A stretch of 12,694 bases of DNA from a virus. Its lineage: Duplodnaviria > Heunggongvirae > Uroviricota > Caudoviricetes. The notes beneath the pieces are model-generated. The model was not told where the DNA came from. It saw only the letters and a program-made list of their open reading frames with translations, and searched no databases. The stretch spans positions 1 through 12,694 of the IMG/VR virus record IMGVR_UViG_2529293249_000016, one strand, 5' to 3'. Numbering within the stretch: position 1 is the first letter of the stretch; each line of letters begins with the position of its first letter. Shown here in pieces: positions 1,132-11,559 of the stretch. Made by a program: the position numbers and the translations under genes.

Positions 1132-2193
1132 TTAATATTCAAAATTATTTTCTTCAATAGAGAACTCAATCCCTCGGGATAACTTATCAATATTCACATC
1201 AAATGCGATATCTGTTAATTCACCATCCTCGATTTCATACATAACTTCAATTTCAATATCGAAACTAATCTCTTGAACTTCAGTTCGTGTGGTTGTCTCC
1301 ATTGGAATCATTACTTTATCTTCGCTATCCCAATACCCATTATTAAAGTCTGGACCAGAAACAGTAACTTCAAAATCTACAGAAACAGAGAAGGTCGCTA
1401 GACAATAATTATTGTCAATCTTAATTATTGATGGTTCAAAGTCATCAATATTGACGACTTCAAATGAATCCAATTCAGCGTCTTCCCAAGTTGAAACGTT
1501 ATATCCATCGGCATCATTGAGTTGGGCAATTACGTCCGCTCTTATGTCTTCACGTTTGCTTTCGATAAACTGCATCAATTTATTACTTAATTCGTTTGTA
1601 TGCGTATTGTATTCACCTAGAAACTTATCAAGTGAATCAATTTGATGAAGATTGTTTTTACCATCACAATAATTTTTTAAGTCACTATCCTCAGAAATGA
1701 TATACACATCTTCATCATTAACAAATCGCTCTACCGCAGCTAAATTGATTGCATCAGGAAACTCACTTTTTTTCTTATTTTGCCCAAATGGTGGTTCTTT
1801 GCCAAAGTATTTATCTAAAACCTCATTAAGATCTATCACTTCTATTGTAGCTAATTTGGCGTGACATCCTTTCAAAAAATCATCAAAAACTTTTTGTGCT
1901 GCTTCGTGAATTTCATGTTCGTTAAATTGCTGAAAAAAACCATGGAGCGGTCCATTATCAATACTATTCAAAAGCCTAGCTTTTCTTTGTACTGTGTTTA
2001 TAGCCTGCAGAGCATCCTTTATTGATTCCTCTATTTTACCTTTTACTTCTCTCTCTACAACTGTAGTTGTAATTAAGACTAAATCACCTTTCGCACATAA
2101 TTCATGGAAAGCTTTAAATGCTACCCCCTCAAAATGAAGACCAGCCTTTACGTACGTTTGTGTGTCAATAAATACCTTATTTGTTTTAAGCAT
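1132..2193 (-). CDS. AT-rich cargo protein of 353 aa with an N-terminal PIN-like domain (VFIDTQ start) and a very acidic C-terminal half; candidate anti-phage or toxin nuclease
   Basis: ATG at 2193 with AGGA about 7 nt upstream. N-terminus MLKTNKVFIDTQTYVKAGLHFEGVAFKAFHELCAKGDLVLITTTVVEREV resembles PIN-like nuclease folds (DUF4935-type); the C-terminus is D/E-rich. Strongly AT-rich and convergent with the portal gene, lying between portal and cos. Confidence 0.7.
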   Translation of the reverse strand: MLKTNKVFIDTQTYVKAGLHFEGVAFKAFHELCAKGDLVLITTTVVEREVKGKIEESIKDALQAINTVQRKARLLNSIDNGPLHGFFQQFNEHEIHEAAQKVFDDFLKGCHAKLATIEVIDLNEVLDKYFGKEPPFGQNKKKSEFPDAINLAAVERFVNDEDVYIISEDSDLKNYCDGKNNLHQIDSLDKFLGEYNTHTNELSNKLMQFIESKREDIRADVIAQLNDADGYNVSTWEDAELDSFEVVNIDDFEPSIIKIDNNYCLATFSVSVDFEVTVSGPDFNNGYWDSEDKVMIPMETTTRTEVQEISFDIEIEVMYEIEDGELTDIAFDVNIDKLSRGIEFSIEENNFEY

Positions 2194-7643: not shown

Positions 7644-7985
7644 TTAATTCGGCATGGTTAGCCGTCTGGGAAATAAGCTCACCACTGCACGAAAATGATT
7701 CATTGCTTTAATCAGCTCCCGCTTTTCGTCAGTGGTCAGCTCATTAATGCTGATGCTATGACGTTCAGCTGGAATTTTTGCCATAAAGAATATGGCAGCC
7801 AGTGCCCGTTTATTTTGTTCATTATTGATATCCCGTGGATCACGCATATCTTTAATAAACCGCTCAAGCTCTGACTCAATATTCAGGCCAAAAACTTTCG
7901 CCCTTAACTCCGCAATGTGATTAAGTCCATTCAGGCGTTCACCGGGGCTTAATGGAACAGTTGCTGCAGCGCCATTAATTGCCAT
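7644..7985 (-). CDS. Hypothetical early-operon protein (113 aa)
   Basis: ATG at 7985 with GGGGGA about 9 nt upstream. Same strand and operon context as neighbours. Confidence 0.5.
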   Translation of the reverse strand: MAINGAAATVPLSPGERLNGLNHIAELRAKVFGLNIESELERFIKDMRDPRDINNEQNKRALAAIFFMAKIPAERHSISINELTTDEKRELIKAMNHFRAVVSLFPRRLTMPN

Positions 7986-8007: not shown

Positions 8008-8232
8008 CTATCGTTCTTTGTTCTTACGGTAACGCTCAAGAGGAGATACATTTTTTCGTATCGTCTCTTTAACCTGCTCTCCCCGTAAAAACGTCCCATC
8101 CTTTAACGTGAAAAAGTAACTGCCATCGCCCGACAATGACGGATAGCAACAGAGCAAATCATCTTCAGGTACTGAATAACTCTCCCCTCTGTAACGAAAC
8201 TGATAAACCACTTCACTTTCTGCCGCATACAT
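8008..8232 (-). CDS. Hypothetical small protein (74 aa)
   Basis: ATG at 8232 with GGAG about 9 nt upstream. Overlaps the 3' part of the neighbouring ORF by about 130 nt in another frame, so one of the two may be over-extended. Confidence 0.45.
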   Translation of the reverse strand: MYAAESEVVYQFRYRGESYSVPEDDLLCCYPSLSGDGSYFFTLKDGTFLRGEQVKETIRKNVSPLERYRKNKER

Positions 8233-8399
8233 TTGGACTTTCTCCGTTTCCTCGTGGTCAATTCAGACAGCAATTCATCTTGTGAATGACATGGATGCCA
8301 GCGTTTTCCATCCTCACCCGTGATCCAGCCGTGACCGTAGTGCATTGCCGGGCTTTGTTTTACCAGCAGCGATGCAAATGATGGTTCTTTCGTCAGCAT
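8103..8399 (-). CDS. Hypothetical small protein directly downstream of cII (possibly Fil-like); true 3' end uncertain
   Basis: ATG at 8399 with GAGGTG overlapping the cII stop. Position corresponds to the fil/dhr region of 186. The track ORF starts further upstream (8432), which I reject as the start. Confidence 0.4.
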   Translation of the reverse strand: MLTKEPSFASLLVKQSPAMHYGHGWITGEDGKRWHPCHSQDELLSELTTRKRRKSKCMRQKVKWFISFVTEGRVIQYLKMICSVAIRHCRAMAVTFSR

Positions 8400-8406
8400 A
8401 AACACC

Positions 8407-8916
8407 TCACAGCAAACCGAATGAAGCACCAAGGCCAGTCATGGTATCAACTGCACTCGCCATCGCAGGATTAGCCTGTAAACGGGCTTGCAATGAAACA
8501 GCAGCCAGCGCCATCAGTCGTGTTACAGAGTTAATGCTGCTGATAGCATCACGACGACCGGCACTAGTTTTTACATCACCAGATACCGCACCTGCTGCAA
8601 CACGCCCGATCTCTGCAGTTGCGCTCATGACGTAATGCGGCAGTTTCTCTTTTGCTACCTCATTAATCGGTACACATGGCAGACAATGAATCTGTGCCAG
8701 AAAACCATCTACCAACGTTGAATCTTCAGTCAGATCGGTAAGCAGCCAGATTTCTGGTGCGGTTAATAAATGAGGTTGAGCTGGATTCAGCTTGTTCCGC
8801 AGAATCTGCACATTCATGCCCGCACGTTCTGCCAGTTGCACCAGATTGTGGCGCAGTGCGAATGCACGACAGGCTTCATCAAAATGTGGATGTTTGGAAA
8901 CTTGGTAATCAAACAT
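8407..8916 (-). CDS. cII: Phage CII-like transcriptional activator, 186 type (169 aa)
   Basis: Internal ATG at 8916 ([19 protein letters not shown]...) with GAGG about 9 nt upstream gives 169 aa, matching the length of 186 CII as I recall it. Sits directly after the apl-like gene in the lytic operon. Confidence 0.75.
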
Positions 8917-9265: not shown

Positions 9266-9862
9266 ATGTCAACATCAAAGTACCCAAGTGAGATCAAAAT
9301 AAATCCCAATAAAGGTGGTAAGGCTGCGATTGAGCGATTAGTCGAAGCCTATGGCTTTACGACACGACAGGCTTTAGCTGATCACTTGGAAGTATCAAAA
9401 AGCACACTAGCGAACAGGTATTTGCGGGATACATTTCCTGCTGACTGGATAATCCAATGTGCTCTTGAAACAGGAACCTCCCTCAAATGGTTAACTACCG
9501 GACAAGGCCTTAAGCAAAGCTCGCTGACAGCAGCTACAGAAGAGCTTGTTAAGTTTCGCCTTGCCGCAGGCAAAATGATTGAAGACGGTTCATATGTCTT
9601 CGATTCATCATTTCTTCCTGCAAACCTTTCATCACCAATTGTTGTTCAGGATGGACTCGTCACATACATTTGTGATCAAAAATTTTCTGAAGTACTTGAT
9701 GGAAACTGGTTAATCAATATCGACGGAACCTATTCCATTCGAAAAATCACAAGGCTTCCTAAAGGAATGATTAAAATTACAACAGCAGAGAATAGCTTTG
9801 AATGTGCATTTTCTGATATTGAAGTGGTTGCTTGTATAAGAAGTACAATAGTCTCGAATTAA
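9266..9862 (+). CDS. cI: Immunity repressor, 186 CI type (198 aa)
   Basis: ATG at 9266. N-terminal HTH region (RLVEAYGFTTRQALADHLEVSKSTLANRY...WLTTGQG) and a size close to the 192 aa of 186 CI. Divergent from the apl/cII operon and upstream of int. Confidence 0.75.
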   Translation: MSTSKYPSEIKINPNKGGKAAIERLVEAYGFTTRQALADHLEVSKSTLANRYLRDTFPADWIIQCALETGTSLKWLTTGQGLKQSSLTAATEELVKFRLAAGKMIEDGSYVFDSSFLPANLSSPIVVQDGLVTYICDQKFSEVLDGNWLINIDGTYSIRKITRLPKGMIKITTAENSFECAFSDIEVVACIRSTIVSN

Positions 9863-9882: not shown

Positions 9883-11559
9883 ATGAATTCATTTGCCATC
9901 GTTATACTCTTATTAGCATTTCTCGCCCCTGTTCTAGCTGTAATATTATTTAAACAAAGTAAAAAACACAAAGCGGCTATAGATAACCTGACAGCTAACA
10001 ACATAGCCCTTTCTAACCAACTGATTGAAAATCAAGAAAAACTAGCACAGACCGCACGAGAATTATCAGAGCTTGAAGGGCGAGCAGCACCATTGTGGCA
10101 ATACGAAGAATTGCACAGCGCAGTAATGGATGCAGAGAATAAGATAAAAAATGCGGACTCAATAGCCAAGCAAAAAATAGATGAAGCCCAAATTAAGGCG
10201 GCTAAAACAGTAAACGAAGCAAATTATCAAGCTCAGATGACAATAAGCAACGCTAATAGCGAAGCTATAGCAATCACCAAAGACGCTCGCGATGCACGCC
10301 TGAAAGCCAAAGAACGTCTTGATAATGCTAATAATAAAGCAAATGAGCTAATCTCAAATGCTAATGACAATGCAGTAAAAATTATTTCTGATGCAGAAGA
10401 AAGAGCAAAGGAGATTGCTGGTTCAGCATATGAAGCTAAAGAGTTTGCAGAAAAATATGAAGCAGTTGCAAAATCAATGAAAAATAAAATTGAAGGTTAT
10501 GGTGATGAATGGATCATCCCTAACCGTAGTGTACTTGATGAGCTGGCAGAAAATTATGAATTTACAGATGCAGGCAAGGAATTACAAAAAGCCAGAGAGT
10601 TAACCAAATCATTAATAAAAACTAATAAAGCTGCTTCGTGTGATTATGTTGAGCAAAACAGGCGTAATACTGCCATAAACTTTGTTTTGGATGCCTTCAA
10701 TGGAAGAGTTGACAGTATTTTATCAAAAGTCAAACACAACAATTTTGGAAAACTTTCCCAAGAAATAAAAGATGCATTTCAACTAGTAAATTACAATGGC
10801 TCTGCCTTTAGGTCCGCAAAAATAAGTGACATCTATCTTCAGGCAAGACTCAACGAGCTAAAATGGGGTGTAGCAGTTAATGAAATTATGCTCGAAGAAA
10901 AAGAAGAGCAAAGAAGGATTAAAGAACAGCTTCGTGAAGAGGAAAGAGCTCGTAGAGAATATGAAAAAGCGATAAAAGAAGCTGAAAAAGAAGAAAAAGC
11001 TATTCAGCAAGCTATAAATAAAGCAACGAAAGAACTTATGCTTGCAAATGAAGAACAACGCTTAGCTTTAGAGCAAAAAATAGCTGAACTACAGTTAAAA
11101 TATGAAGAAGCTGAAGCTAAAAATCAACGAGCTATTTCTATGGCTCAACAAACCAGATCAGGCCACGTCTATATCATTAGTAATATTGGTTCATTTGGCG
11201 AAGATGTATATAAAATTGGAATGACACGCCGCCTTGAACCACTTGATCGTGTTCGTGAACTCGGAGATGCTAGTGTTCCTTTTTCGTTCGATGTTCATGC
11301 GATGATTTATAGTGATGATGCACCATCATTAGAAAACCATCTGCATAAAGTTTTCAACGAAAAGCAGGTCAATAAAATTAACTCACGAAAAGAGTTTTTT
11401 AACGTAAATTTAAAAGAAATCAAATCAGTTATTGAAGACATGAACATCAACGCCCACTGGACAATGTTTGCAGAGGCGAAAGAATATAGAGAGTCTCTAT
11501 CTATTGAGCAGGAGCGCAAAGCAGCCACTTCCGCCAACGATGAACTACATGTTGCTTAG
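9883..11559 (+). CDS. AT-rich cargo protein of 558 aa: N-terminal transmembrane anchor, long K/E/A-rich coiled coil, C-terminal T5orf172 (GIY-YIG-like) domain; candidate anti-phage defence protein
   Basis: ATG at 9883 with AAGGA 7 nt upstream, 20 nt after the cI stop. Hydrophobic N-terminus FAIVILLLAFLAPVLAVILF. C-terminus GHVYIISN...YKIGMTRR...PFSF...RKEFFNV matches the T5orf172/Mug113 pattern. Inserted between cI and int, which are normally adjacent. Confidence 0.75.
   Translation: MNSFAIVILLLAFLAPVLAVILFKQSKKHKAAIDNLTANNIALSNQLIENQEKLAQTARELSELEGRAAPLWQYEELHSAVMDAENKIKNADSIAKQKIDEAQIKAAKTVNEANYQAQMTISNANSEAIAITKDARDARLKAKERLDNANNKANELISNANDNAVKIISDAEERAKEIAGSAYEAKEFAEKYEAVAKSMKNKIEGYGDEWIIPNRSVLDELAENYEFTDAGKELQKARELTKSLIKTNKAASCDYVEQNRRNTAINFVLDAFNGRVDSILSKVKHNNFGKLSQEIKDAFQLVNYNGSAFRSAKISDIYLQARLNELKWGVAVNEIMLEEKEEQRRIKEQLREEERARREYEKAIKEAEKEEKAIQQAINKATKELMLANEEQRLALEQKIAELQLKYEEAEAKNQRAISMAQQTRSGHVYIISNIGSFGEDVYKIGMTRRLEPLDRVRELGDASVPFSFDVHAMIYSDDAPSLENHLHKVFNEKQVNKINSRKEFFNVNLKEIKSVIEDMNINAHWTMFAEAKEYRESLSIEQERKAATSANDELHVA

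Follow-up and report, generated by a model that had tools for sequence, protein, structure and literature searches.

The window, which is the whole 12,694-nucleotide stretch of DNA analysed here (IMG/VR record IMGVR_UViG_2529293249_000016), carries the early lytic operon of an Escherichia coli prophage of P2/186-like (Peduoviridae) type. The operon genes are all encoded on the minus strand, in the order cII, fil, ORF2, DUF5347, DUF2732, a TraR/DksA zinc finger gene and Dam, while the CI repressor ORF is on the plus strand. An apl/cox-like gene is also found among the genes around fil and ORF2. The fil ATG (8397-8399) lies 7 nt beyond the cII stop codon, and DUF5347 has a separate start of its own, 22 nt past ORF2, with a fresh ribosome-binding site (RBS). 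The features discussed here are the following, with positions counted along the window.

9266-9862, plus strand: CI repressor ORF, from the CI annotation in identical records.
8407-8916, minus strand: cII, the 186-type CII lysogeny activator (Pfam PF06892 Phage_CP76, E=3.2e-42; RefSeq 'phage regulatory CII family protein').
8403-8408, minus strand: Shine-Dalgarno-like GAGGTG 5' of fil, by sequence inspection.
8103-8399, minus strand: fil ORF, 98 aa (MLTKEPSF...), in an open frame of 8103-8432 with its first ATG at 8399 and its stop codon TAA at 8103-8105.
8241-8399, minus strand: conserved part of fil (codons 1-53), with the Fil domain (Pfam PF10893 Phage_186_Fil) at aa 5-53.
8242-8245, minus strand: RBS of ORF2 (GGAG), within fil, by sequence inspection.
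8103-8240, minus strand: unconserved C-terminal tail of fil (codons 54-98 and TAA), out of frame over ORF2 from 8232 downwards.
8103-8232, minus strand: overlap of fil and ORF2, in different frames.
8008-8232, minus strand: ORF2, 74 aa, ATG at 8230-8232 and stop codon TAG at 8008-8010.
7644-7985, minus strand: DUF5347 gene (Pfam PF17282, E=3.7e-33).

Beside cI on the plus strand (9883-11559) is a gene for a 558-aa protein, which is probably a defence gene borne by the prophage. Its product hits the PADLOC model PD-Lambda-1 for anti-phage defence (E=2.8e-120) and contains DUF4041 and T5orf172/MUG113 domains; in phage vB_EcoM-813R9 it is labelled 'chromosome segregation ATPase'.

The original prediction was that fil and ORF2 overlap by about 130 nt in different frames and that each has a credible ATG and RBS. 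Its coordinates are correct; the overlap is exactly 130 nt, and the frame of ORF2 is +2 with respect to that of fil, with its start at an offset of 167 nt. The two ribosome-binding sites are the GAGGTG motif for fil and the GGAG motif for ORF2, which is separated from its ATG by a 9-nt spacer. Three explanations were offered for the overlap: an indel in one gene, genuinely overprinted genes, or one spurious ORF.

A frameshift might have artificially extended fil or split one longer gene. The gene is flagged as 'frameshifted' or 'incomplete' in some GenBank and RefSeq records, and rare fusion products exist, such as a 129-aa Fil-ORF2 protein (P0017). However, Escherichia phage vB_EcoM-813R9 and several independent complete E. 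coli chromosomes carry the 601 nt surrounding the site at 100% identity; these nucleotides are found at 99% identity or more in 215 RefSeq records, and at least 80% of their length is found in 593 of 5,426 complete E. coli genomes. Identical sequence in many independent genomes excludes a sequencing or assembly indel. The same two-ORF layout is also present in relatives whose ORF2 is only 67-80% identical, and ORF2 is free-standing elsewhere, so the indel option falls away. Pseudogene flags come about when Fil is compared with proteins whose tails differ in length. We consider it extremely improbable that a frameshift explains this locus.

ORF2 is recognised here as a genuine, independently mobile gene. 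It matches the phrog_4312 family over its full length (residues 1-74 of 74, E=3.7e-53) and contains the motif of that family, C-[CF]-[YF]-P-S-x-S-G-D-G-S-Y-F-F-T-L-K-D-G. An identical ORF, the 'hypothetical protein' WP_001374083.1, is annotated by PGAP in E. coli LR-50. Homologues with 47-99% identity are found in Escherichia, Klebsiella, Kluyvera, Pantoea, Edwardsiella and metagenomes, and a profile search of 1.8 billion representative proteins gave further distant relatives of 65-76 aa. An alignment of 11 sequences has 22 invariant positions around C-C-Y-P-S-x-S-G-D-G-S-Y-F-F-T-L-K-D-G-T-F-x-R-G-E. The AlphaFold2 model (pLDDT 84.8) consists of five beta strands and a C-terminal helix, with the variable residues 1-8 outside the predicted fold. 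When the alignment served as query for a second scan of genome contigs, the six loci of the first scan came back and no others. The scan of viral contigs returned near-identical copies only, which were used only for population polymorphism.

The position of ORF2 is not tied to that of fil. Two Pantoea genomes have the order cII, ORF2, a convergent 83-aa ORF, fil and DUF5347, and fil there has its usual 37-nt overlap into DUF5347. In Edwardsiella the order is cII, fil (62 aa), a 130-aa ORF, ORF2 and DUF2732. A convergent ORF of 82-85 aa (MLNEKEIERFELLEK...) is found 3' of the ORF2 homologue in most diverged relatives and is missing from the window. It occupies positions 1683-1934 (minus strand) in locus L015 and 1683-1940 (minus strand) in L016, it is also present in L097, L099, L100 and L104, and it has no Pfam or PADLOC hit. 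ORF2 may travel with this convergent ORF as a two-gene cassette.

Most RefSeq annotations imply a reading in which ORF2 is spurious and the 98-aa Fil alone is a real gene. PGAP calls only the 98-aa Fil-family protein in most genomes, and searches for an ORF2 family in Pfam, NCBIfam and PADLOC found none; the sole NCBIfam hit, LA_3334, scored 16 bits where the cut-off is 200. This reading is contradicted by homologues that are 47-60% identical across genera and share the 22 invariant positions, by the occurrence of ORF2 apart from fil, by its pN/pS ratio of 0.15-0.37, and by the phrog_4312 match and the confident fold. Since ORF2 is conserved and under purifying selection, and the first 50 or so residues of Fil are conserved too, neither ORF can be dismissed as wholly spurious, and we give this reading hardly any credence.

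Comparisons of ORF2 with the protein families above and with known sequences and structures assigned it no function. The sequence profile matches in the PDB were all weak, the best being to a TCR alpha chain (E=0.005), and a Foldseek search of the model against the PDB and BFVD found no match at E<=0.001. A group of large repetitive proteins (P0038, P0040, P0048 and others) came up as candidate homologues in the search of representative proteins; these share only a short, beta-hairpin-like 'DGSYFFT' motif, which lies within Ig-like or low-complexity repeats, and they were rejected. A tblastn search of ORF2 against 50,697 phage records returned only copies of at least 95% identity, and 186 was not among them.

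The Fil protein of the window belongs to the family of the 186 Fil protein. It scores 80.5 bits against the Pfam family PF10893 (Phage_186_Fil/DUF2724), for which the cut-off is 25, and it matches phrog_32377 over its full length (E=2e-68) and phrog_816 over aa 1-58 (E=7.7e-32). The gene lies directly 3' of a 186-type cII, as it does in 186, PSP3, RE2010 and others. In an alignment of 18 diverse members the invariant columns end at L47 and the last near-invariant position is T49; the tails beyond are unrelated. We conclude from this alignment that conservation of Fil is limited to about residues 1-50. A search of 5.8 billion proteins gave 66 aa as the modal Fil length, and there are minor classes at 75, 81, 87, 98 and 109-112 aa. 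Natural E. coli variants of Fil (61, 74, 81 and 102 aa) have altered or truncated tails and an intact N-terminal domain. The evidence places the likely functional unit of Fil in its first 50 or so residues. According to the annotation of the 186 GenBank record (U32222), overexpression of Fil blocks cell division; a search of one library of papers for 186 fil and dhr found nothing relevant.

The tails of Fil have some features in common. They are strongly basic, with a net charge of +6 to +13, whatever gene they overlap, and most of them have a Trp followed by hydrophobic and basic residues just past the embedded ATG. The Fil protein of Edwardsiella, the only one that does not overlap the next gene, also has Trp and hydrophobic residues (...RRRRPWWFRLMGLRG). 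Fil proteins of the window type have Cys in place of the conserved Trp (AAA-TGT-ATG). An AlphaFold2 model of the 98-aa Fil has the tail as one long helix of moderate pLDDT, within an overall model that is too poor (pLDDT 65.9, pTM 0.29) to be informative.

We compared how fil ends in the annotated junctions of 186, PSP3, Salmonella phage RE2010, SEN8, Yersinia phage MLG42, Klebsiella ST15-OXA48phi14.1 and Erwinia EtG. With one exception, the relatives examined lack a stop codon in the fil frame ahead of the RBS and ATG of the next gene; the exception is the Edwardsiella prophage, in which fil terminates before that gene. The 66-aa fil has a constant 37-nt overlap into DUF5347 in RE2010, SEN8, MLG42, ST15-OXA48phi14.1, EtG and Pantoea, and in PSP3 a fil of the same length has a 37-nt overlap into an unannotated DUF5347-like ORF. 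In this common arrangement the DUF5347 ATG is at fil offset 164 and the tail of Fil is KWLLKALRRLFH. Apart from 186 and Edwardsiella, all the relatives compared have a purine-rich site equivalent to the GGAG of ORF2 before the ATG of the downstream gene, at the same offset in fil (158-167 nt). In most relatives the embedded ATG is read in the fil frame as xxA-TGG, which gives the Trp codon. Taken together, these junctions identify an out-of-frame end within the next gene as the rule for fil and not a peculiarity of the window.

Where the next gene is an ORF2 homologue, the fil stop lies 79 nt into it in Kluyvera (L014), 130 nt in the window, L097 and L099, and 172 nt in L100 and L101. None of the five diverged fil-ORF2 loci, which are not independent of one another, has a fil stop earlier than 79 nt into ORF2. 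We examined whether an open frame of this length would be expected by chance. When the ORF2 codons were redrawn synonymously using the window's own codon usage, the fil frame stayed open for a median of 42 codons, the observed value also being 42 (P=0.15 for 43 or more). Shuffling the order of the ORF2 codons gave P=0.08 for an open fil frame of at least 43 codons. The 130-nt overlap is therefore no longer than expected by chance, given the ORF2 protein.

Nei-Gojobori counts were made for all 10 pairs of the five diverged fil-ORF2 loci. Within the overlap pN/pS is 0.15-0.37 for the ORF2 frame and 1.27-1.81 for the Fil frame; in the rest of ORF2 it is 0.24-0.59. Nine of the 10 pairs have an ORF2 pS of 0.58-1.06 in the overlap, no lower than the 0.47-0.78 of the rest of the gene. 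The exception is the window and L097, with an overlap pS of 0.15, which is low because the 5' segment was recently exchanged by recombination. Among the polymorphisms in the overlap of 40 close haplotypes from 85 loci, the ratio of nonsynonymous to synonymous changes is 11:5 when they are read in the Fil frame and 6:10 when they are read in that of ORF2. These values assign the purifying selection in the overlap to the ORF2 frame, and the pattern in the Fil frame is the one expected for an unselected alternative frame of a constrained gene. The original prediction had proposed aligning homologous prophage regions to see which frame is conserved, and took an unconserved second frame as its refutation; within the overlap one frame, that of ORF2, is conserved and the other, that of Fil, is not.

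The exceptional pair is also informative about the history of ORF2. Between ORF2 of the window (8008-8232) and that of L097 (1201-1425) synonymous divergence rises from 0.15 over the 43 codons at the 5' end to 0.78 over the 3' part, which points to mosaicism, with a putative recombination breakpoint inside ORF2.

The overlap could be genuinely dual coding, with the long Fil tail, or its first 10-20 residues, serving as a functional basic or amphipathic extension over the poorly conserved N-terminus of ORF2; alternatively, translation of fil through the ORF2 start could regulate ORF2 by coupling or occlusion. The uniformly basic tails, many of which begin with K, S or P followed by W and then hydrophobic and basic residues, would fit such a role, as would the high helical hydrophobic moment (0.84) of the canonical 12-aa tail KWLLKALRRLFH. 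The variability of ORF2 residues 1-8 leaves room for a constraint in the other frame, and the embedded-start architecture is kept across the Fil family. However, in this small sample of five diverged loci neither purifying selection in both frames nor a lowered synonymous rate in ORF2 was found, pN/pS in the Fil frame exceeds 1, and neither the overlap length nor the stop position is conserved. Furthermore, the conserved Trp has become Cys in the window type, the tails of the window, L099, L014 and L100 share little besides what the YQF motif of ORF2 forces on them, and natural variants carry other tails. We regard this explanation as unlikely, and of the overprinting that the original prediction had allowed for, the part that would be functional dual coding does not hold.

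The overlap is real, and we propose instead that it is nothing more than a by-product of the exchange of modules at the start of a gene, through which Fil gains an unconserved tail. We consider this explanation probable. The RBS and ATG of the next gene are embedded in the 3' end of fil, and Fil would terminate wherever the following gene, read out of frame, happens to have its first stop codon. In the lineage of the window the extra small gene ORF2 has been inserted, like a cassette, in the slot where DUF5347 commonly starts. The first stop codon in the fil frame is then 130 nt into ORF2, which yields the 98-aa Fil, and the last 43 or so residues would be an unselected, basic read-through tail. 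Fil would act through its N-terminal 50 or so residues. From the ATG codons, the Shine-Dalgarno sites and conservation we infer that Fil and ORF2 are both translated, and both would be made from the pR early transcript.

A narrower form of constraint on the tail deserves consideration. Fil could have two parts, the conserved N-terminal domain and a short, basic, Trp-containing segment encoded across the start of the next gene. The embedded start would then be a conserved translational-coupling device, and each cassette (DUF5347, dhr or ORF2) would have been selected for an alternative frame that gives Fil a basic or amphipathic tail. If so, the first 30-40 nt or so of the overlap would be dual coding and expression of the accessory gene would be tied to translation of fil. 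The composition of the first 10-15 or so tail residues may be under a functional constraint, and a short basic C-terminal segment may matter for Fil; pN/pS calculated over the whole overlap of five sequences does not resolve a short constrained segment at the start of the tail. The full two-part proposal seems to us quite unlikely.

At the start of DUF5347 in the window (7947-7985) the frame of the canonical Fil tail can still be made out as a relic, WQLMALQQLFH* compared with WLLKALRRLFH*. In the window and at the same site in L001-L096 the Arg codons of the relic have become Gln codons at synonymous Ala sites of DUF5347. These changes are weakly consistent with a constraint on the Fil frame that might have been lost after ORF2 was interposed.

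The main value of these results is for annotation, which at this locus (L001, L002, L105 and L106) is inconsistent. One version has the 98-aa Fil and omits ORF2, a second has ORF2 (WP_001374083.1) and a Fil pseudogene described as 'missing C-terminus', and a third starts ORF2 from an internal GTG at Val8 and gives it a read-through C-terminus (WP_348270521.1). In GenBank CP019275 fil is flagged as frameshifted. The evidence supports calling both genes, and a Fil that varies in length from prophage to prophage should not be taken as pseudogenisation.

Rearranged forms of these genes are found among public proteins (labelled P0017, P0021, P0003 and P0079). The in-frame Fil-ORF2 fusion of 129 aa has 12 member sequences, and its junction fits the loss of 2 nt at a G-run at about 8182-8189 of the window (GAGGGGAG, minus strand). 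A cII-ORF2 fusion of 122 aa is present in 19 contigs, and a 61-aa Fil that is frame-shifted just upstream of the ORF2 ATG is present in 67. An ORF2-Dam fusion is also found among the natural variants.

The locus is a combination of the known fil family and the catalogued, uncharacterised small-protein family phrog_4312. Compared with that family and with WP_001374083.1, ORF2 of the window is a typical member and differs in nothing. The phrog_4312 family is a small, widespread early-operon family at a point of cassette exchange beside the host-directed genes fil and dhr, and on this ground it is a reasonable candidate for a role in host takeover or for an accessory one. By analogy with these neighbours ORF2 is probably an accessory early gene that is host-directed.

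In 186 (U32222), fil (23952-24179) likewise follows cII directly after a 7-nt spacer, and the N-terminal domains of the two Fil proteins are homologous (73% identity over 55 aa). The 75-aa fil of 186 also ends out of frame in the next gene, as the window fil does. However, the overlap in 186 is 14 nt into dhr (24166-24366), as opposed to 130 nt into an ORF2 that is unrelated to dhr, and the downstream start is at fil offset 214 in 186 as opposed to 167 in the window. The original prediction had noted that this position holds fil and dhr in 186. For fil the Pfam match bears out the analogy. For dhr it extends to position only; ORF2, like dhr, directly follows fil and starts inside its 3' end, but BLASTP found no alignment between ORF2 and 186 Dhr at E<=100.

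Another close comparison is with RE2010, in which the first 52 residues of Fil are 88% identical to those of the window and are encoded by near-identical DNA. In phages of the fil-DUF5347 type (RE2010, SEN8 and ST15-OXA48phi14.1) the RBS and ATG of the next gene are at the same position in fil and in the same +2 frame relation. These phages have the constant 37-nt overlap and the conserved tail KWLLKALRRLFH, whereas in the window ORF2 is interposed and there are 43 unrelated tail residues. In a pairwise alignment RE2010 and the window are nearly identical through fil until the embedded ATG, where the window has about 250 extra bases, which comprise ORF2, the 22-nt spacer and the new RBS for DUF5347. 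The start of ORF2, at offset 167, differs by 3 nt from the usual DUF5347 start at 164, and the frame relation to fil is kept.
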